DNA from: a virus | Lineage: Duplodnaviria > Heunggongvirae > Uroviricota > Caudoviricetes | Length of the DNA stretch: 36,745 bases | Virus record (IMG/VR): IMGVR_UViG_2585427964_000003 | Direction: 5' to 3' (one strand) | Shown: positions 4,406 to 33,128 of the stretch, piece after piece | Layout: each line of letters begins with the position of its first letter | How positions within the stretch are numbered: the stretch's first letter is position 1 | Position numbers and translations under genes: made by a program | The notes under the pieces: model-generated | What the model saw: only the letters and a program-made list of their open reading frames with translations | The model's database searches: none | What the model was told of the DNA's origin: nothing

Positions 4406-4825
4406 TCGTGTTTCCGCTTCGCCGGAGCGCCTTTTCGCGCCATGTGATGAGTTCGGTCAGGCTCATGGGATACAGTTCTGATGGCGGCCAGTGAAATATC
4501 ACTGCCACATCCGCCATCAGGTCATCGACCGACAGATTTTTCGGGAACGTCACTGCACCGAGTTCGGCGACAAAAAACCGACCACCTTACCGGCCAGCGC
4601 CACAAGGTCAGGCAGTTCCAGCGCGGCGACTTCCTGCTCGGTCAGCATCGGTGCCGTCATGCGCGGCAGCACCTTAATCAGTGCATCGACTTCTGAGTTT
4701 GCGACCGCAGCCAGACTGACACCGCGCAGCGTCCCCGCACTGGGTTTCATCAGCGTGACCTGTTCGATAACCTGCTCACCACGCCTGACCGGATTGTCCA
4801 GGGTAATCACATTTTCTTTGTTCAT
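4398..4825 (-). CDS. E: Tail assembly chaperone gpE+E' (programmed -1 frameshift product)
   Basis: Manual translation: after a -1 slip at the T6G slippery heptamer (minus strand, plus coordinates 4572-4578) the reading frame stays open to a TAA at 4400-4398, giving 142 aa, the length recalled for P2 E+E'. The stop overlaps the T start region. Confidence 0.75.
4550..4825 (-). CDS. E: Tail assembly chaperone gpE
   Basis: 91-aa ORF MNKENVITLDNPVRRGEQVIEQVTL..., size and position match P2 gpE. Confidence 0.88.
   Translation of the reverse strand: MNKENVITLDNPVRRGEQVIEQVTLMKPSAGTLRGVSLAAVANSEVDALIKVLPRMTAPMLTEQEVAALELPDLVALAGKVVGFLSPNSVQ
4572..4578 (-). other. Slippery heptamer TTTTTTG for the E/E' -1 programmed ribosomal frameshift
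   Basis: Plus strand AAAAAAC at 4572-4578 (CAAAAAAC 4571-4578) is TTTTTTG on the coding strand, in-frame as GGT TTT TTG within gpE, 9 codons before the gpE stop. Confidence 0.75.
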
Positions 4826-4881
4826 GGTTTTCTCACTTCTGAATCGGGGTTAACCGGTCAGCCAGGCTGACCGGATGAAAA

Positions 4882-5400
4882 TTACAGGCCGATATTGCGG
4901 CGGTGTTGCTCCAGCCGGTCGACGCCATTCACCTTCTCAATCATGTTGATGGTGTCGATTTCGACCAGTTCCTTACCGTCCATCGTCAGCCGGAAATAGG
5001 TGCAGACCACGGAGATTTTCGACTCGGTGTCTTCTCCCTGTTTCCCCTCGCCGGTGTCGATTTCTTTCTGACGTCCACGCATGACCACCTCGACGGCCAC
5101 AGTTTCGCCGGTATCGTCGCGCTGGTAAGAGCCTGCAAAACGAATCGGCACAGCATCCACACCGATTGCGGCGTAAAGCTCCCAGATAACCGAATCCGGG
5201 AAGCCCCCGAGCGACCACTCCATTGACAGTGCATCGTCATCAAGGCCGAGGTCTACCGGTGCGCTGCCGTTCATCCCCGCACCGCGATAGTTTTCGAGCT
5301 TACGGGTCAGTTTTGGCAGCGTGACGGACTTTGCAACGCCCTGATAGCTGTAGCCGTTCAGAAAGACGTTCATTAACTTGAGTTTGCGCGGCATTGCCAT
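4882..5400 (-). CDS. FII: Tail tube protein gpFII
   Basis: 172-aa ORF, size and position match P2 FII. Confidence 0.9.
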   Translation of the reverse strand: MAMPRKLKLMNVFLNGYSYQGVAKSVTLPKLTRKLENYRGAGMNGSAPVDLGLDDDALSMEWSLGGFPDSVIWELYAAIGVDAVPIRFAGSYQRDDTGETVAVEVVMRGRQKEIDTGEGKQGEDTESKISVVCTYFRLTMDGKELVEIDTINMIEKVNGVDRLEQHRRNIGL

Positions 5401-26686: not shown

Positions 26687-26708
26687 GCCGCCTGCGGGCG
26701 GCTTTTTT
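26687..26708 (+). terminator. Rho-independent terminator downstream of Q
   Basis: GCCGCC-TGCG-GGCGGC stem-loop followed by TTTTTT, 6 nt after the Q stop. Confidence 0.75.
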
Positions 26709-26850
26709 ACACCCCGTCATCACGCCCTCACACGCTCACCACCGCACAAAACAGCCCGCAGGCAAACCAACGCCCCGGCTAACAATCTAAACACCATCAT
26801 GACGCGCTCAGACGCTGAAAAAATAAAATCAGCACCACCGCCAGCGCGCA

Positions 26851-26869
26851 GTGCTTTCCCCGCCTCGCC
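26851..26869. other. cos cohesive-end site (P2-type 19-nt sequence)
   Basis: GTGCTTTCCCCGCCTCGCC is the reverse complement of GGCGAGGCGGGGAAAGCAC, which I recall as the P2 19-nt cohesive end; it lies between Q and the cargo/A region as expected. Confidence 0.8.
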
Positions 26870-27016
26870 CGCCCGCTTCATGCAGGGCTTTAAATGCAGT
26901 GCAGCAGTAATGGTTAGAATGCGCCAGCACTGATGTTAGATACCAGAACTGGCATTTAAAAATGAATGCAAATAAATGCACCAAACTAATTACTTACTGA
27001 CAAAAAATAAGTAAAA

Positions 27017-27901
27017 TCAGGCGCAAGTTGGCATTGAGACCCCTTTCAGGGTATTAGGAATAATTATTTCAGGAGAAAAAATCATCACTTCCTCTCCAGA
27101 TTTTTTGAGATGTGCTGTATATTGCAATGAATACTCAACTTGCGGAAATCCATTATAAATATCTTTAATTTCCTTAGCGTTATCATAAGAAACAAGCCAA
27201 TTTGGGAAATTAATTTCTGTGAGTTTCTTCATAACCAATACATGGTCATCATGCTCATAAAAATTCCTGTAAAGCCCTTGCCCTTTAATATAGTAAGGAG
27301 GATCCAAATACAAAAGAATTTTATTTTTATCCACCTTTCCCATATTATCCATAAAATTCAAGGCATCAAGAAAATCCAAAGCATCCAGATTAGTTACTAC
27401 TATTCTTTGATTATAATTTGCTATCTTCTCAATTCTTGAAATTAAATCCGCCCTGTTAAAGCGAACATCCATTTTCCATTTTCCATTTTGTGATTTCCCG
27501 CCTATAACCCCCGCCTTGAGAATACCTGAACGATTTGTTCTATTTAAGAAAAACGCAGCAAAGCCAACCTCAAGCTTAGTAAACTCAGAAGGATTCGAAA
27601 TAACATAGCGATGAAAAGACCATTCATCCATATCTATCTTTGCTCGGCTAATAAGTCGGCAAAGCTCATCAGTATCACTAACAACAGATGACCAAAAAGA
27701 ATAAACAGCAAAATCTGCATCATTTATATAGATTTTACGGACATACTCTTCCAATAATAATTCTAAAGCCACCCCTGCACCACCAGCGTAAGGTTCTGCA
27801 TATGCTCCATCATTCAACGAGTTTTTTTCAATAACATCTTTTAAAAAGTAAGATAACTTACCTTTCCCGCCGGGGTATCTTAATGGAGTATAAAATTTCA
27901 T
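27017..27901 (-). CDS. Dam-class (D12 family) N6-adenine DNA methyltransferase
   Basis: 294-aa ORF with GAGGG Shine-Dalgarno; motifs YPGGKGKL near the N-terminus, PYAGGAG (SAM-binding FxGxG-like) and LDPPYY (catalytic DPPY). Strongly AT-rich; lies in the tin/old-equivalent position. Confidence 0.8.
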   Translation of the reverse strand: MKFYTPLRYPGGKGKLSYFLKDVIEKNSLNDGAYAEPYAGGAGVALELLLEEYVRKIYINDADFAVYSFWSSVVSDTDELCRLISRAKIDMDEWSFHRYVISNPSEFTKLEVGFAAFFLNRTNRSGILKAGVIGGKSQNGKWKMDVRFNRADLISRIEKIANYNQRIVVTNLDALDFLDALNFMDNMGKVDKNKILLYLDPPYYIKGQGLYRNFYEHDDHVLVMKKLTEINFPNWLVSYDNAKEIKDIYNGFPQVEYSLQYTAHLKKSGEEVMIFSPEIIIPNTLKGVSMPTCA

Positions 27902-27938
27902 AAATCCCTCTCATTCCTGATTTTGTAGTTTATCAGTT

Positions 27939-27958
27939 TCTGGACATCCATGTCCAGA
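27939..27958. promoter_or_regulatory. Perfect palindrome TCTGGACA-TCCA-TGTCCAGA upstream of the methyltransferase gene (candidate operator)
   Basis: 8-bp perfect inverted repeat with 4-nt spacer in the 69-bp gap between the two cargo genes, 38-57 nt upstream of the methyltransferase ATG. Confidence 0.4.
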
Positions 27959-27970
27959 TGTAGACAAATC

Positions 27971-29476
27971 TCACTCACTCCAAATAAGGCTTAATAACAA
28001 CTCAAAGTTATCCCACTCAGTGTTGACAGCCTCTTTTGAGGGAATTAAGTGTGGGTTATGTACATACTGCTGCAATGAACCATCATGTTTAGTTATTTGG
28101 CTCGAGAAAGTTATTACAGCCGTACATTGACTCCCCGTCATCTTTTTATTTTCCCGAAGGAAATTAGCACACATTTTAACCTTATCATGAAGCCCTGGAG
28201 TTCTATGTGGTTCCTTAAATTGTAACTTGTTTTCTTCAACAAAAGTGCTTACAGAGAGATCTATAAATATTCTCAACAATATTGAGATAGCATTAGGGGT
28301 GTTATCAAATGTCAGATGCGACTTAAGCTCATTAAATATTCTAGAGCATTTCTTATGCCCTCTAAAATTAAATTTCACATAAGATGGCACCAACACATTA
28401 CGATCTACTTTAGGAGGAGTTTTTCCCTTGTTTTTATTCTGTTCCGTGCCCGAAACTTTAGATTTACTCTCTTCTGTGCCTACATGTCTAGAATAATCAT
28501 CTTCCTGTTTATCCACACCTGTATTCTTTAAGGCATCACCTTCTGAAAGACCTACTTTCTTTACACTCACAGATGCATCATTTTTGTCAATAGAATCATG
28601 TTTTTTCTCTGTAAGAAAAGATTTAGGCTCCAGTAAACTCCACGGCTTATCTAAAAGAGATTCTGAAGGTTTTATTTTTTGTTCAATAATAAATGTAACC
28701 CTGTCATCTTGGCTACGAATCCTATTAACAGTAAAACAAGCCTTACCTTTATCATCCTCTTCAATCATTACATCTAAAATATTTTTTAATTGTGCACAAA
28801 AACGTTCATAAGGCTGATATGAGTATAGAACTCCATTAATGCTTTTTAAATTAAAATAATCCCTCACCTTTAAATCACCAAAAAGACGCGTGATGTTTGT
28901 GATTTTTAAAAGTCTTTTTTTAGCAATTATCTCTTTATATAAATCAGTATTGAACTCTATAAATGTAAGTATTTGATTACCAAATGACTGCTTACCCATC
29001 CTAGCCAGATGTCGTGCTTTTTCTGTTGCAGTCCATTCAACTCTTCCAACTCCAGCATTTTGACCAGTATGCTTTAAATTGACCCAATGCTCATATTCAT
29101 CATCGTCAAAAAGAACGCAGTTATCTATAACATTAATATCTTTAAGCTGAGTAATCTTAAGTTTTTCAAAAGCTTTCCGTGCTTTTTCTGTTGGTGCAAG
29201 TCTAGGAGAGTGTAAAAGTTTAAGGGCTGTAACTCGACGATTACCTTCAGCAACGACGAAAAAGCCAGATTCCTCTTCACTAGGATAAACTAATATGTTT
29301 TCAGACGGATCTAAACCTTTCGAAGCAATATCTTTAGCCAAGCGATAAATGCGGTCGTACTGCAAGTCAAGCATCTTGGCAATAGCATCACGCTGATTTT
29401 CTGCTGACGTCGGGAAACGAGGGTTATCAACATCCAAAAGTAACTTATTGATATTCATTGATTTTAGTTGATTCAT
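27971..29476 (-). CDS. ParB/Srx-fold nuclease-domain protein with long C-terminal extension (cargo gene)
   Basis: N-terminal region LLLDVDNPRF ... ILVYPSEEESGFFVVAEGNRRVTALKLL carries the ParB N-terminal domain signature (GxRR). A Lys/Glu/Ser-rich low-complexity linker is followed by a roughly 150-aa C-terminal domain of unrecognised type. Start chosen at ATG 29474-29476 (AGAGGA Shine-Dalgarno 8 nt upstream, 501 aa); the ORF track extends to 29545 (524 aa). AT-rich. Confidence 0.7.
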   Translation of the reverse strand: MNQLKSMNINKLLLDVDNPRFPTSAENQRDAIAKMLDLQYDRIYRLAKDIASKGLDPSENILVYPSEEESGFFVVAEGNRRVTALKLLHSPRLAPTEKARKAFEKLKITQLKDINVIDNCVLFDDDEYEHWVNLKHTGQNAGVGRVEWTATEKARHLARMGKQSFGNQILTFIEFNTDLYKEIIAKKRLLKITNITRLFGDLKVRDYFNLKSINGVLYSYQPYERFCAQLKNILDVMIEEDDKGKACFTVNRIRSQDDRVTFIIEQKIKPSESLLDKPWSLLEPKSFLTEKKHDSIDKNDASVSVKKVGLSEGDALKNTGVDKQEDDYSRHVGTEESKSKVSGTEQNKNKGKTPPKVDRNVLVPSYVKFNFRGHKKCSRIFNELKSHLTFDNTPNAISILLRIFIDLSVSTFVEENKLQFKEPHRTPGLHDKVKMCANFLRENKKMTGSQCTAVITFSSQITKHDGSLQQYVHNPHLIPSKEAVNTEWDNFELLLSLIWSE

Positions 29477-29832
29477 CAACATATCCTCTGTTGAATCTTT
29501 ATGATAAAAATTAATTATTTTTATCATAAATGATAGCGTAAACATAGTCTTATGAACGACATCAGCCCTGAAGCTTCAAAACTATCATTTACGTTTGCGA
29601 GGCACCATCTATCACATTGATTTATAATAAGTATCTTTATCTTCACTGCATTGCTCTCAAAAAATCACATAGATGGAAATTCCCCGTTGACACACTCCCA
29701 AGTGATGCAGATACATTTCAAGTGCTTCATACACATGATAACGGCTATCCCCCTAAATTCTGTGCGTTTCTTTTCCCTCCAGCACAAGGTTGAAATATCT
29801 TGCGTGCAGCTTTACTTTGTGAATCTTTGTCA

Positions 29833-32124
29833 TTATATCCGCGCCATTACTGTTGAGAATCCCGGCCACTCATCAGCGACCGGATACGTGAATTTTTTCC
29901 CGTCATAATTTACGGTCGCGCCACGCGCCAGCACCTCAAGCTCCCATCGTTGCGGCCTGATACCGTTCTGAGCGAGGTCAACGCGGATACGGGTAATTTG
30001 CAATCGTTCCGACCGGGTCAGTCTGGCCGACGGTGCTATTTCATGCGGTTTTAACGGGCTTCCGGCTCTTTGCTGACGATTTGGTGTTCTCAGTCCGTGT
30101 TTTAATGCGCCCCTGAGCGCCCTCACGACCTCCGGGTCATTCCATTCGATAACACCGTCATCAACCAGATTAAGCACTGCTGCGACGTGCTCAGAAGGTG
30201 TGGGAGCCGGTAACGAAGTATCACCACTGGTGAGCTTTCCACAGTTATTGACAGGACTCCGAGGCGCGGCGATGCCGCTTTTTAAAGTCAAAGGCTCAAC
30301 GACCGGAACTTTCAGCACAATGCGCCAGTCCGTCGTTCTGGTGATATGAATATGACGCGCGCCGAGATGCGGCGCGTAAATGCCGACCACTCTCTCGACT
30401 TCTTCCTCATACTCGTTAACGTCATCTGACGGGCTACGGGCGACCCTGACAGTCTGACAATCGCGCGGGACATTTGCCCCACCCTGCGCGCTGATATACA
30501 ACGCAAAATCACCACTGTCTGCGGCGGCGCGTGCAGCCTCGACGCGTTCGTCAAACTCATCAGCAATGCTGACGCCGCGAGGCAATTTGCGTAGCTCACG
30601 GTAAGCCCCCATTGTCGGCAGGCCAACCGTTTTAAATTGCGGGATGCGCCACGTTGACGCCCATGCGGTAACAGCCGCGGCAGTATCTTTAAGCGGCTTA
30701 CCGGTATCGTTATCGAGCTGACCATCCAGTGCATAGCCGTCGATATTTTTTGAAATGTATTTCGCGATATATCCCGCAGCACCGCCCCGGTTAAGGTGTT
30801 TTGCCTGAAAACGGTTTCGCGCAGCGCCTCTTTCGTCACCATCCTCTTTGAGCGCATAGCGACGCATGATTTCGATAATCTGGTTACGCTGGCGTGGATT
30901 ACAAAAAAGCATCATATGCCAGTGCGGCGTTCCGTCGTGGTGTGGCTCGACGACACGCAAACCGTAGACCTGTAAATCATTATCCTTGAATGCCGTGCGC
31001 ATCAGGCTCCAGATACGGCAGAGATAACGCTGCGCATCCTTTGGATTAAATGCCTCATCGTTCCAGCCGTGATTAAGCTGAACGGTTTTACTTTCGCCTT
31101 TTCCGACCTGACGTGTCGGGTGATACTTTGACGGCGCGGTCAGCGTGATAAACATCCCCACATCACCCTCTGCGGCGGCGTAACGCTCAATACCGGCAAT
31201 GGTGTTCATCAGCTCCATCCGGCGAATTTCAGGATTAGAAATACTGCCCATCACCTTACTGATAAGGTCGATGCGCTCGCCGGTTTCCCTGTTTTCAAGG
31301 TCACACGATTTAAGAAATTCCAGATTTGCCTGGCGGCGCGCACGCACATCACGAATGGCATGTTTACTGGCATAAGGAGAACGGTCTTTATTGACCTCCC
31401 CGACAGCTATCAGTAAAGCTTCATGCCAGCGCATACGCTGGCCTTTAAGCTGATGAGTCCACCACTCATCGTTAAACAGGCGGGCAATGGCAGAATATGC
31501 CTGCCTCGTGGTTATCTGTCCTTTACGGTATTTTTTCCAGTAGAGCGGGGAAATATTGAAAGCACGTGCAGCGCCAGCAACATGACCATACAGATGATCC
31601 TGCGCCTCATCCGTAAACAGTGATTCTTTTTCGCCATGCGCATCCACCCAGGCATCGCAGAGTTCCTCATACATCATGAAAAGCTGCGATGAAATACGGG
31701 CGGCAAACTTTTTCAGCTCCTTGTCATTCATCCCCGGCAGACGCGCATAGTGGTCACGCTCAGCCAGAAACAGCAACGACGCGTCGGTGTTCATTTCATG
31801 GCGCTGATTCACGCGCTCAATGCGCGGCCATAAACGACGCTGAAAAGTGGATGTGAGGAAATAAAACCCGTGTACCGGGCTTTTATTGCGCCGGATGTAG
31901 TCATAGCGTGAAGTAAACAGCGAGCGCAAAAAGTAAGGCAGGCGGTTAATCGTGGATAAAACCCCTTGCACCTGACGCATCTCGTCACGTGTAAGGGGTC
32001 TTTCGCGCCCGACGGCCTCGCGTGGCGCGTTCCATGCATAAGCACCGGTAAACGTCTTACCGGTGCCTGCAGCAAATGCTGACGTAGTTACGCAGGTGTA
32101 TTGCTCCTGGAAAGAATGACTCAT
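29833..32124 (-). CDS. A: Replication initiation endonuclease gpA (rolling-circle)
   Basis: 763-aa ORF MSHSFQEQYTCVTTSAFAAGTGKTFTGAYAWNAP...; size and position match P2 A (about 761 aa from memory). Confidence 0.92.
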   Translation of the reverse strand: MSHSFQEQYTCVTTSAFAAGTGKTFTGAYAWNAPREAVGRERPLTRDEMRQVQGVLSTINRLPYFLRSLFTSRYDYIRRNKSPVHGFYFLTSTFQRRLWPRIERVNQRHEMNTDASLLFLAERDHYARLPGMNDKELKKFAARISSQLFMMYEELCDAWVDAHGEKESLFTDEAQDHLYGHVAGAARAFNISPLYWKKYRKGQITTRQAYSAIARLFNDEWWTHQLKGQRMRWHEALLIAVGEVNKDRSPYASKHAIRDVRARRQANLEFLKSCDLENRETGERIDLISKVMGSISNPEIRRMELMNTIAGIERYAAAEGDVGMFITLTAPSKYHPTRQVGKGESKTVQLNHGWNDEAFNPKDAQRYLCRIWSLMRTAFKDNDLQVYGLRVVEPHHDGTPHWHMMLFCNPRQRNQIIEIMRRYALKEDGDERGAARNRFQAKHLNRGGAAGYIAKYISKNIDGYALDGQLDNDTGKPLKDTAAAVTAWASTWRIPQFKTVGLPTMGAYRELRKLPRGVSIADEFDERVEAARAAADSGDFALYISAQGGANVPRDCQTVRVARSPSDDVNEYEEEVERVVGIYAPHLGARHIHITRTTDWRIVLKVPVVEPLTLKSGIAAPRSPVNNCGKLTSGDTSLPAPTPSEHVAAVLNLVDDGVIEWNDPEVVRALRGALKHGLRTPNRQQRAGSPLKPHEIAPSARLTRSERLQITRIRVDLAQNGIRPQRWELEVLARGATVNYDGKKFTYPVADEWPGFSTVMARI

Positions 32125-33128
32125 TCACATACACCGGCATAGACACTACTGCAAACGGCTTTATCATTCGCCGAAGCCAGTAAATCAAACTGAGTACCCC
32201 CACGCGTTGTCATTGTCCAGTCATGGTAGGTTTCTATTCCGTATGCCTCGACTGTTACAATCTCAATACGACGTTCTGCGCGTAGCGGATCATGTGTGGA
32301 TGGGAAAAAAGTGGAATTTCCCCGACGGGAGCACGACGCAACCAGTCGTTCCCATTCAGCAACCCGTTTTATTTCCTCCGGCCACCGGCGAAAAATTTCT
32401 GCCAGTTCAGATTTACGGACATGAATACATGGCATACAACCAACACGGCCACACCCCTGCTGATATAACGGATTTGGCTTAATGTCATGTCTTCTGGCTA
32501 TTGCAAATACATCTTCATGCTTCCAGTGCAAAATCGGGCGATATACATGCAATCCGGGGGTGTTGTCTGCATCCTCTTCCCAGACAGGTAAAGCAGCGCG
32601 TGATGGCGATTCCTGAGCACGCACTCCCTGCCAGCTAATCACTTCCTCAAATTCATTGAGTAAAGGCAATATTACCTGAGAACGCACGGGCTCATGTTTC
32701 AGTTCAAATGTGCAAAATCTGGCTTTGGTTGATGGGAAACGCCCCTTCCACAGACACAAATCAAGAAACGGGATACCCGTTGGTTTGAGAATTTCCAGCG
32801 CACAACTGATGCGCTGGTGCGCTTCTTCTTCCGACATTCCACAATCGTTAACCAACAAATCAGGCCATTTGGTCTGGATAAACTTGCGCTTTGATTCAAT
32901 CCGGCAGGAAAAATCAGCTCTGACTCTTTTAATTGGGCCAAGCCGTTTTTCCAGATAATCCAGATATTTCATTGTCTGTGGATGTTCATGTCCCGTATCA
33001 GCAAAAACCGGCAATATGGGTACATTTTCTTCAATAGCGACAAGCCACTGAGCAAGGCTGTCCTTTCCACCTGAAACAAAAATAACATTGATGGTATTTT
33101 CAGTATGGCAACGAGCATCAGTAATCAT
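32121..33128 (-). CDS. PAPS reductase / DndC-like PP-loop ATP pyrophosphatase family protein
   Basis: 335-aa ORF with N-terminal PP-loop VIFVSGGKDS and a C-terminal cysteine cluster (GCGRVGCMPC). Start overlaps the orf83-like stop and its stop overlaps the A start (ATGA at both junctions). Confidence 0.75.
   Translation of the reverse strand: MITDARCHTENTINVIFVSGGKDSLAQWLVAIEENVPILPVFADTGHEHPQTMKYLDYLEKRLGPIKRVRADFSCRIESKRKFIQTKWPDLLVNDCGMSEEEAHQRISCALEILKPTGIPFLDLCLWKGRFPSTKARFCTFELKHEPVRSQVILPLLNEFEEVISWQGVRAQESPSRAALPVWEEDADNTPGLHVYRPILHWKHEDVFAIARRHDIKPNPLYQQGCGRVGCMPCIHVRKSELAEIFRRWPEEIKRVAEWERLVASCSRRGNSTFFPSTHDPLRAERRIEIVTVEAYGIETYHDWTMTTRGGTQFDLLASANDKAVCSSVYAGVCE

Follow-up and report, generated by a model that had tools for sequence, protein, structure and literature searches.

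What is carried by the AT-rich DNA that lies next to cos in a P2-like E. coli prophage? The window analyzed here, a stretch of 36,745 nucleotides (IMG/VR record IMGVR_UViG_2585427964_000003), contains two co-oriented minus-strand genes between cos (26851–26869) and the end of replication gene A (29833). One (27971–29476) encodes 501 amino acids and the other (27017–27901) 294; in the following, A and B refer to these two genes and their products. The initial annotation had located both open reading frames correctly and proposed a candidate defense or DNA-modification module, which it rated as the strongest candidate for an undescribed system in the window. The defense role is well founded, as a near-identical allele from ECOR7 gives phage resistance. 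The claim of novelty does not hold: the pair is PD-lambda-5 (Vassallo et al., 2022; PMC9519451), as judged by full-length PADLOC matches and near-identical proteins.

Position, Composition, and Boundaries of the Gene Pair

The GC fraction is 0.352 in A, 0.350 in B, and 0.35 over 26900–29750, compared with 0.516 in the rest of the window and 0.53–0.57 in the flanking portal, terminase, and replication genes, in agreement with the earlier remark that the pair is more AT-rich than the P2 backbone. Both genes and the AT-rich island are real features, well past chance expectation. On the portal side, the hotspot is bounded by a 19-mer at 26851–26869, read directly as the reverse complement of GGCGAGGCGGGGAAAGCAC, which we take to be the P2 cos cohesive end. 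The other edge is formed by a frameshifted DUF3850 pseudogene remnant (29752–29833, minus strand) directly after the replication gene. Its coordinates derive from the RefSeq annotation of NZ_CP095856.1, in which the region is 100% identical, with locus positions 5253–5334 mapped onto the window. A and B are separated by a same-strand spacer of 69 nt (27902–27970), which implies that they probably form a two-gene operon.

The longest open reading frame of A (27971–29545) has 524 codons for amino acids. The start at 29476 is the better choice because a GAGGA Shine-Dalgarno sequence (29488–29484) lies 7 nt upstream, RefSeq uses the same start, and profile alignments begin at residue 23–24 of the long frame. 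The resulting 501-residue protein (27971–29476, minus strand, stop codon included) corresponds to RefSeq WP_001563630.1. Besides the ribosome-binding site, the upstream control region (29484–29542, minus strand) contains the promoter-like hexamers TTTACG-17-AATAAT at 29542–29514, a match that, taken alone, is at chance level (12 found versus 10.6 expected). A perfect 14+5+14 palindrome of 33 bp, TTTATGATAAAAAT-AATTA-ATTTTTATCATAAA (29498–29530), spans the −10 hexamer and the start region; its 14 perfect pairs compare with a maximum of 12 in 2000 shuffles of the 165-nt region. The palindrome was rejected as a family-wide operator, as only 4 of 79 homologous upstream loci exceed their shuffles.

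The Gene Pair Is an Allele of PD-lambda-5

A matched the PADLOC model PD-Lambda-5_A (PDLC03998) with an E value of 6.3e-168 and 557 bits over model positions 1–465 of 466, the alignment covering residues 24–523 of the long open reading frame. It was also matched by a further 24 PADLOC A-subfamily models and by PHROG 9592 (E = 1.6e-210). B matched PD-Lambda-5_B (PDLC04018; E = 1.4e-121) over positions 1–280 of 291. E. coli strain A7, isolated from an orangutan (genome of 4,836,060 bp), carries a copy to which A is identical at 500 of 501 positions and B at 292 of 294. The validated ECOR7 proteins have the accessions RCQ13837.1 and RCQ13838.1. The second of these, PD-lambda-5B, does not differ at any position from the methyltransferase of A7 (100% identity), and from this and the orangutan host, among other evidence, we infer that A7 is ECOR7. 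The two alleles differ by three substitutions, V308A in A and A180V and V288G in B, from which no functional difference is expected. The A7 flanks are identical in order (terminase, portal, the A-B pair, the DUF3850 remnant, and the replication endonuclease), and the P2 hotspot is shared. With gene content, gene order, and hotspot all shared, full-length model matches, and only three amino acid differences, the pair is almost certainly an allele of PD-lambda-5, carried as cargo of the cos-proximal hotspot in a P2-like E. coli prophage. In the profile searches that the initial annotation had suggested as a check, both genes matched PD-Lambda-5 models and B also matched the D12 family. Strong full-length homology to a characterized restriction-modification (R-M) system, which it had named as an argument against its own reading, was found in spirit, but the match is to a defense system and not to classical R-M.

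The ECOR7 system was cloned and validated as two genes by Vassallo et al. (2022, Nat Microbiol; PMC9519451). It protects against nine of 10 phages, with the strongest effect on T-even phages, and also blocks lambda-vir, the phage used for selection (PMC9519451). Table S1 of that study gives "No" for escape plaques with the PD-lambda-5 clone, and T-even phages are described there as intrinsically resistant to most R-M systems. Because no escape plaques arise and T-even phages are the best restricted, PD-lambda-5 does not appear to be ordinary restriction. The same authors had already annotated its products as "ParB/HEPN, methyltransferase" and considered a logic that combines R-M with abortive infection (Abi) (PMC9519451). 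The system is a known one: it was described, named, and validated in 2022, and standard tools for finding defense systems flag it (PD-Lambda-5 in PADLOC and DefenseFinder). A 2013 catalog (PMC3710099) already contained ParB-HEPN fusions, as well as operons that combine a HEPN gene with genes for a ParB nuclease and a DNA methylase. In the searchable literature, a search for a mechanistic study of PD-lambda-5 turned up nothing beyond census papers and papers that repeat the "compact R-M/Abi" remark, and Rousset et al. (2022), in the main text of their study of P2/P4 hotspots, name neither a ParB nor a methyltransferase system. To these accounts the present analysis adds the family-wide absence of the HEPN Rx4–6H motif, the invariance of six HEPN-domain residues, the likeness to KorB and PadC, and the retention of the cassette in 78 of 80 loci, all set out below.

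Predicted Architecture of A

A is composed of a ParB/sulfiredoxin (ParB/Srx)-fold N-domain, a helical middle domain, a disordered linker, and a HEPN-fold C-domain. Sequence profiles give few leads outside the PD-Lambda-5 and PHROG models: A has no Pfam match, reaches only 14 bits with NCBIfam RepB against a cutoff of 201.5, and has no relative among PDB sequences in a profile search. The family itself is large, with ∼6,000 clusters of protein relatives at 50% identity. Across 52 A-family sequences, compared down to 29% identity, N18, R20, E77-R81, H136, N140, R359, E383, R402, Y471, H473, and N474 are invariant; stray Pfam matches among these sequences are to DUF5677, DUF4145, and Csm6-HEPN.

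The N-domain (residues 1–125; 29102–29476, minus strand) contains N18 and R20, the invariant N-terminal NPR motif, and the GxxR phosphate-binding box E77-G-N-R-R81, identical in 52 of 52 sequences. Residues 77–81 are the EGNRR of the string VAEGNRRVTAL from which a ParB fold had been proposed; this string, like the methyltransferase motifs PYAGGAG and DPPY, is present as reported. The proposal stands as regards the ParB/Srx fold and the GxRR box, but not as regards Pfam ParBc (PF02195), which matches none of the 52 family members at E < 0.05. By structural comparison, the N-terminal half of A is nearest to the CTP-binding ParB relatives KorB, PadC, and ParB, with sulfiredoxin-ATP and SerK also among the top matches, and pNOB8 ParB-N aligns with A over 148 residues. 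Judged from fold and motif, the N-domain may bind an NTP.

Residues 126–292 (28601–29101, minus strand) contain the invariant loop W131/H136-T-G-x-N140-x-G142/W148, of which positions 141–144 have low pLDDT, and after it a predicted, mostly helical domain. In Foldseek alignments of 204–289 columns, this domain is matched by the segment of KorB and ParB that follows their N-domain, and it is a candidate DNA-binding module. The linker that comes next (residues 293–355; 28412–28600, minus strand) is rich in K, S, D, and E, has pLDDT below 50 for residues 294–354, and varies from 14 to 73 amino acids across the family. The lone difference of A from the A7 copy, V308A, falls in it.

The ParB/KorB-like fold raises the question of whether A could be a partition or regulatory (IbrB-like) ParB that serves the prophage through a parS-like site, and not a defense effector. 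A homolog with 77% identity carries the database name "IbrB-like-binding regulator," and the perfect 33-bp palindrome upstream of A might be taken for such a site. This reading is extremely improbable. Analogous to the ParB, KorB, Noc, and PadC CTP switches, which are the best structural matches of its N-terminal half, A retains EGNRR and NPR throughout the family; unlike them, it has no ParA partner, no parS array, no C-terminal dimerization domain, and no ParBc match. Indeed, no ParA-like gene recurs among 80 A-family loci, no repeated site array was found in 26700–29900, the palindrome is not conserved upstream of homologs, the RepB score is below the cutoff, the C terminus has a HEPN fold in place of a ParB dimerization domain, and the element is an integrated prophage. 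The resistance phenotype published for the nearly identical cloned allele effectively refutes a partition-module identity.

The HEPN-Fold Domain Lacks a Conserved Rx4–6H Motif

In the predicted structure, residues 356–501 (27974–28411, minus strand) adopt the HEPN helical fold, to which the domain can be assigned. The long C-terminal domain of A that had been called unrecognized is present, but its fold is a familiar one, already labeled ParB/HEPN in PMC9519451. Nine of its residues are invariant: R359, P364, E383, L384, R402, L429, Y471, H473, and N474. The canonical HEPN catalytic motif, Rx4–6H, is not conserved across the 52 A-family sequences. Upstream of the invariant H473 the sequence reads S/T-L-Q-x-Y-V, with no arginine 4–6 residues before the histidine. 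The only Rx4H in A, R425-H430, occurs in just 26 of 52 sequences, half of the family, and was therefore discarded as a candidate for the catalytic motif. Since Rx4–6H is not conserved in the family, the HEPN domain of A could be noncatalytic. HEPN families with a conserved histidine and no arginine do exist, for example c2405 (PMC3710099).

B Is a D12-Class Adenine Methyltransferase

B (27017–27901, minus strand; RefSeq WP_000675356.1, "DNA adenine methylase") is a D12-class N6-adenine DNA methyltransferase of 294 amino acids. It matches PF02086 over positions 1–245 of 253 (E = 3.6e-16; 60.1 bits versus a cutoff of 22), and its motif I (PYAGGAG, at 37) and motif IV (DPPY, at 200) are intact. 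The earlier description as Dam-class is right at the level of the D12 class, but B is not a Dam ortholog, as it scores 47 bits with NCBIfam Dam (TIGR00571), below the cutoff of 114.85. The PADLOC model MTase_II (PDLC03358) is matched with E = 3.3e-103, and orphan-methyltransferase models are matched more weakly. As host for PD-lambda-5, Vassallo et al. used an MG1655 derivative that lacks the mrr region (PMC9519451), a choice consistent with methylation-dependent Mrr toxicity and hence with B being active in vivo.

A and B Are Linked across Distant Phyla

In 78 of 80 loci from Proteobacteria, Bacillota, Bacteroidota, Actinomycetota, Chloroflexota, Patescibacteria, and a Micrarchaeota MAG, A is followed immediately downstream by a D12 methyltransferase homolog in the same orientation. 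Of the two exceptions, one is a contig that ends just after A; in the other, B is encoded on the opposite strand, so that A and B are adjacent in 79 of 80. For 73 distant loci with B after A on the same strand, the median gap, estimated from HSPs, is 28 nt (range 6–111 nt). No third gene recurs in most of the 80 loci. OLD/AAA_15 ATPases (12 loci) and integrases (4 loci) are recurrent, but as they are found on either side of the pair, they are neighbors and not components. Co-divergence of A and B, measured by bit score, is too modest (Spearman 0.32) to be used as evidence.

Adjacency on this scale bears on whether the two genes act together at all. B might be an orphan methyltransferase that shields prophage or host DNA from other restriction systems, and A an abortive-infection toxin that is complete in itself and has a different form of regulation. 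Orphan Dam-like methyltransferases are commonly carried by phages, and the weaker PADLOC matches of B to orphan models fit such a role. Separate functions are nonetheless highly improbable: the genes stay together in very distant phyla and in differing genomic contexts, so unlinked functions are not expected, and PD-lambda-5 was defined and cloned as two genes (PMC9519451).

A Model for Self-Marking and Effector Control

The reading we favor, with a probability of about one-half, combines a methyltransferase self-mark, a ParB-like sensor, and a HEPN effector. B, as an active D12-class m6A methyltransferase, would mark its own target sequence in the genome of host and prophage. A would act as a single-chain sensor-effector in which the ParB/Srx N-domain and the DNA-reading helical module are connected by the flexible linker to the HEPN output. 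Unmarked phage DNA entering the cell would be engaged by the ParB-like module, probably in a nucleotide-dependent manner as in the KorB, ParB, and PadC switches. Engagement, probably by bringing about the pairing of two HEPN domains, would then license the HEPN domain, which would most likely act as an RNase, and phage and host gene expression would be shut down; the ParB domain may additionally nick DNA. R-M-style epigenetic self-marking would in this way be joined to an abortive-infection-style effector, which matches the published idea of a compact R-M plus abortive infection system. The parts of the model differ in strength. That methylation is the self-mark that keeps A silent is likely. 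Whether the HEPN domain is a catalytic, RNA-targeting effector is evenly balanced, and that the ParB module senses DNA in an NTP-dependent manner, rather than being the main nuclease, is plausible at slightly below even odds.

A simpler possibility is an unusual Type II-like R-M system, in which the ParB-fold domain cuts unmethylated sites and the HEPN domain serves only dimerization or DNA handling, with no RNase role. The strict pairing of a nuclease candidate with a methyltransferase across phyla, the match of B to a Type II MTase model (E = 3e-103), and the family-wide absence of Rx4–6H speak for it, and PMC12839542 cites ParB/Srx proteins that nick DNA. Further points of likeness to Type II R-M are that the methyltransferase stands alone, has intact SAM-binding and DPPY motifs, and is strictly paired with a single effector gene, and that a self/non-self logic through DNA methylation is probable. 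In place of a recognized endonuclease fold (PD-(D/E)XK, HNH, GIY-YIG, PLD, or half-pipe), however, A has ParB/Srx and HEPN domains, and the nearest structural relatives of its N-domain are CTP switches, not nucleases. Six HEPN residues (R359, E383, R402, Y471, H473, and N474) invariant down to 29% identity are hard to square with a purely structural domain. The published phenotype, too, departs from R-M: no escape plaques were recorded for the validated clone (Table S1, PMC9519451), and the phages blocked best, the T-even phages, have modified DNA that resists most R-M systems. Plain restriction is therefore unlikely.

The strength of the block on T-even phages and the absence of epigenetic escape plaques would also suit an alarm derived from the host methylome. 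Here, chromosome breakdown induced by the phage would free m6A nucleotides or oligonucleotides, which bind the ParB/Srx domain and switch the HEPN domain on, while phage DNA itself goes uninspected. ParB/Srx is a nucleotide-binding fold, with sulfiredoxin-ATP, SerK, ParB, KorB, and PadC as the top structural matches. There is a precedent in an unrelated E. coli defense module that, according to a 2026 preprint, is triggered by Dam-derived m6-dAMP from the phage-degraded chromosome (PMC12871103). We consider this reading very unlikely, as the DNA-binding part of KorB/ParB aligns with the domain that follows the N-domain of A, which suggests that DNA is read and not a free nucleotide. In addition, lambda is not known for extensive degradation of the host chromosome, but lambda-vir is also blocked by PD-lambda-5.

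A broader formulation, quite unlikely in our judgment, holds that PD-lambda-5 is not restriction. B would write a private m6A mark, and the ParB/Srx domain would be either a receptor for released methylated nucleotides or oligonucleotides or a CTP-gated clamp on unmarked DNA, licensing a HEPN domain without Rx4–6H. If true, it would be the first ParB-type nucleotide switch to serve as an epigenetic danger sensor.

The published protection is unusually broad, T-even phages included, and the cassette is conserved across many phyla. The question is now sharper: how does a methyltransferase-coupled ParB-like switch control a HEPN domain without the canonical catalytic motif? The invariant positions E77-R81, H136/N140, R359, E383, R402, and Y471-H473-N474 offer targets for mutagenesis.

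Among HEPN abortive-infection modules linked to R-M, PrrC with EcoprrI and the ParB-HEPN and MAE_28990 contexts (Anantharaman et al., 2013) likewise couple a HEPN-fold effector to DNA modification. In contrast to these modules, PD-lambda-5 places sensor and effector on one 501-residue chain with the methyltransferase as sole partner, has no separate restriction enzyme whose failure is monitored, and does not conserve Rx4–6H. The DUF262/GmrSD-type enzymes (BrxU and SspE) and PD-T4-2 (DUF262 plus HEPN) resemble it in another respect, the coupling of a ParB/Srx-superfamily NTPase-like domain to a nuclease-type defense effector.

Identity of the AT-rich cargo pair

Between the 3′ end of the P2-type replication gene A (29833) and a 19-mer at 26851-26869 (the reverse complement of GGCGAGGCGGGGAAAGCAC), which we take to be the P2 cos end, lie two ORFs on the minus strand, one at 27017-27901 (294 aa; protein B) and one at 27971-29545 (524 aa in its longest form; protein A). 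Both genes have a GC content of 0.35, as does the segment 26900-29750, compared with 0.516 in the window outside this region and 0.53-0.57 in the portal, terminase and replication genes. The initial annotation had reported two co-oriented AT-rich genes with ParB-like and methyltransferase motifs, and this observation was confirmed in every detail: EGNRR is found at residues 77-81 of protein A, and PYAGGAG and DPPY at residues 37 and 200 of protein B. The true start of protein A is predicted to be at 29476, giving the 501-aa form whose numbering is used here, because GAGGA lies 7 nt upstream, RefSeq places the start at the same position in identical genomes, and profile alignments cover the long ORF only from residue 23-24 onwards. 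E. coli EC6563 is 100% identical to the window throughout the region. Directly after replication gene A, RefSeq annotates a frameshifted and truncated DUF3850-domain pseudogene in the identical genomes (about 29752-29833, minus strand), which looks like a scar of former hotspot content after cargo replacement.

The pair had been put forward as a candidate for an undescribed system, a claim that has to be withdrawn, as it is already known as PD-lambda-5, published in 2022. Protein A matches the PADLOC model PD-Lambda-5_A over its full length (E 6.3e-168), with 24 more A-subfamily models also matching, and protein B matches PD-Lambda-5_B (E 1.4e-121) and a Type II methyltransferase model (E 3.3e-103). 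PHROG 9592, to which no function is assigned, matches protein A at 1.6e-210. PD-lambda-5 was isolated from E. coli ECOR7 (QOWS01000001 264599-267059; proteins RCQ13837.1 and RCQ13838.1) and labelled "ParB/HEPN, methyltransferase" by its authors (Vassallo et al., 2022; PMC9519451). The cassette spans 2460 bp in the window versus 2461 bp in ECOR7, and protein B is identical at 292 of 294 positions to the sequence carrying RCQ13838.1. E. coli strain A7, which has the same host as ECOR7, the orangutan, encodes the RCQ13838.1 methyltransferase at 100% identity in its complete genome (4,836,060 bp); A7 appears to be ECOR7. Its adjoining protein A is identical to that of the window at 500 of 501 residues, the sole change being V308A in a disordered linker, and the terminase, portal, DUF3850 remnant and replication endonuclease flank the pair in both. 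On every point that could be tested, the pair agrees with PD-lambda-5, and we put the probability of this identity at about 0.98. The earlier reading of the pair as hotspot cargo with a defence role was right.

In A7 (NZ_CP028767.1), the portal gene beside PD-lambda-5 is annotated as frameshifted, which may mean that the prophage from which the validated system came is defective. RefSeq names for the two A proteins, one residue apart, differ ("hypothetical protein" versus "ParB N-terminal domain-containing protein"), and WP_001072651.1 bears both names in different genomes.

Domain architecture and conserved residues

Protein B falls in the D12 class by its Pfam match (PF02086; 60.1 bits, cut-off 22), and among solved structures 7m6b is its closest relative (E 2e-12). 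The earlier "Dam-class" label holds for the D12 class but not for Dam itself, the NCBIfam Dam model giving 47 bits, below its cut-off of 114.85. Protein A has no Pfam domain match, and ParBc (PF02195) gave no match at E < 0.05 among 52 members of the A family.

Protein A was modelled by AlphaFold2 with a 52-sequence alignment, and three regions emerged. The N-terminal half (residues 1-290) is confidently predicted, the linker (294-354) is disordered with pLDDT <50, and the C-terminal domain (365-498) is confident and all-helical; linker length varies from 14 to 73 aa over the family. The C-terminal domain, described earlier as long and unrecognised, is accordingly assigned a HEPN fold. The assignment is far better supported than it was by the published HHpred analysis, in which ParBc was well supported (96.4%) and HEPN weakly (DUF4145 35.6%, RiboL-PSP 8%) (PMC9519451). 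Its predicted fold places protein A in both the ParB/Srx and the HEPN superfamily, in keeping with the earlier description of a ParB-fold protein paired with a D12 methyltransferase.

Conservation was assessed over 52 A-family sequences with identities down to 29%. Invariant in all 52 are, in the ParB half, E77-G-N-R-R81, W131, H136, G138, N140, G142, W148, R197, V250, I253 and R259, and, towards the C terminus, R359, P364, E383, L384, R402, L429, Y471, H473 and N474; N18 and R20 are kept wherever the N terminus is covered (51 sequences). The canonical HEPN motif, Rx4-6H, does not characterize the family. No arginine stands 4-6 residues ahead of H473, and the sole Rx4H in the window protein (R425-H430), present in 26 of 52 sequences, was rejected as the HEPN catalytic motif.

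Pairing and distribution

The cassette is present in 22 of 5,426 complete E. coli genomes, in each case chromosomal, as one copy and at least 99% identical. A word-indexed search returned 204 relatives of protein A, and when 1.84 billion cluster representatives were searched exhaustively with a profile, 6,052 relatives reached E <= 1e-3 and 1,799 reached E <= 1e-30. Synteny was examined in reference genomes of many phyla, at 80 loci in all. In 78, the gene immediately downstream, on the same strand, encodes a D12 methyltransferase homologue with 31-71% identity to protein B; of the two exceptions, one locus stops at a contig end and in the other the methyltransferase gene is on the opposite strand. 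No third gene recurs in most of the 80 loci. A and B therefore form an obligate unit. Set beside such pairing, unlinked functions for the two proteins seem very improbable. Integrases lie near the pair in 4/80 loci.

At 12 of the 80 loci, all distant (L003, L005, L012 and nine more), a gene for a 560-aa OLD/AAA_15 ATPase (PF13175, PF13304) adjoins the pair, upstream or downstream, an arrangement suggestive of defence-island clustering and reminiscent of old in the same P2 hotspot.

No A homologue above 60% identity was found among the deposited phage genomes of INPHARED, and the E. coli allele is thus known only from prophages in bacterial assemblies. Full-length matches in INPHARED come at best from Vibrio and Pseudomonas phages, with 25-28% identity. 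In Pseudomonas phage OQ658368 (comparison locus L085), an unannotated D12 methyltransferase homologue (locus positions 4436-5239; 45% identical to B, E 3e-56) sits in a 1-kb "empty" gap beside the A homologue, on the opposite strand.

Proposed mechanism and related systems

PD-lambda-5 was characterized in an MG1655 derivative with the mrr region deleted; it protects more strongly against T2, T4 and T6 than against lambda-vir, the selecting phage, and no escape plaques are recorded in Table S1 (PMC9519451). ParB-HEPN fusions had been catalogued before, as had operons that combine a HEPN gene with genes for a ParB nuclease and a methylase (Anantharaman et al., 2013; PMC3710099). Our literature search found no mechanistic study of PD-lambda-5, later papers either restating the original authors' remark on a compact R-M/Abi logic or counting the system in censuses.

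Protein B may methylate the genome, and its mark would keep protein A from harming the cell. Two observations argue for this, the strict pairing of A with an intact methyltransferase and the choice of an mrr-deleted cloning host, and methylation as a self-mark is judged probable. Protein A would act as both sensor and effector, comprising a ParB/KorB-like nucleotide-switch fold, a helical module, a flexible tether and the HEPN domain. When the ParB-like half engages unmarked DNA, the HEPN domain would be licensed to cleave RNA, a model favoured because HEPN domains are generally dimeric RNases. The chances that HEPN is the catalytic effector are about even, and those that the ParB half senses in an NTP-dependent way, rather than serving as the main nuclease, fall a little short of that; the ParB domain possibly nicks DNA. 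This sensor-effector model accounts better than ordinary restriction for the published lack of escape plaques and for how strongly T-even phages are restricted. The fold and residue data make the mechanism of this widespread, broadly protective system directly testable.

At the level of self-marking, PD-lambda-5 probably works like a restriction-modification system. Protein A has no recognised restriction-endonuclease fold, however, in line with the non-classical effector anticipated in the initial annotation, and for this reason the pair is not placed among Type II systems; a plain Type II-like system with the ParB domain as nuclease is unlikely. Alternatively, methylated breakdown products of host DNA could be the ligand, an alarm derived from the methylome. 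Its logic has a precedent (PMC12871103), and we consider it distinctly less likely still. A role in partition or regulation is scarcely credible: a ParABS module was rejected, there being no recurrent ParA gene at the 80 loci and no parS array within 26700-29900, and the HEPN domain replaces the dimerisation domain.

In phage Wphi (NC_005056, 29419-32589; comparison locus L083), the same cos-proximal hotspot holds gp98, gp96 and a DNA cytosine methylase, "mth". Wphi gp98 (401 aa) shares with PD-lambda-5_A only the ParB N-domain, roughly residues 1-160 (PADLOC E 3e-24), and matches the candidate model PDC-M38A at 9e-25. The Wphi cassette is a second, different ParB-like and methyltransferase cassette at the same site, and a related gene is present in the "Peduovirus P2" record OU784549.

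Upstream palindrome and a second cargo candidate

The PD-lambda-5_A start codon is preceded, at a distance of 22 nt, by a perfect 14+5+14 palindrome, TTTATGATAAAAAT-AATTA-ATTTTTATCATAAA (29498-29530), that overlaps a promoter-like -10 element. It exceeds all of 2000 shuffles (maximum 12 pairs) and is a candidate autoregulatory operator. It is not kept upstream of distant homologues, where shuffles were exceeded in 4/79 loci.

Elsewhere in the window, a 335-aa ORF at 32121-33128 (minus strand) carries a PAPS-reductase domain (PF01507, E 5e-35) and has partial PADLOC matches to SspD (2.7e-21), BrxP (8e-13) and DndC. With a stop codon that overlaps the replication gene A start, the ORF sits inside the P2-type early operon. 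P2 itself is not known to have a PAPS-reductase gene at this position. The ORF could be a second cargo gene or one related to DNA modification.
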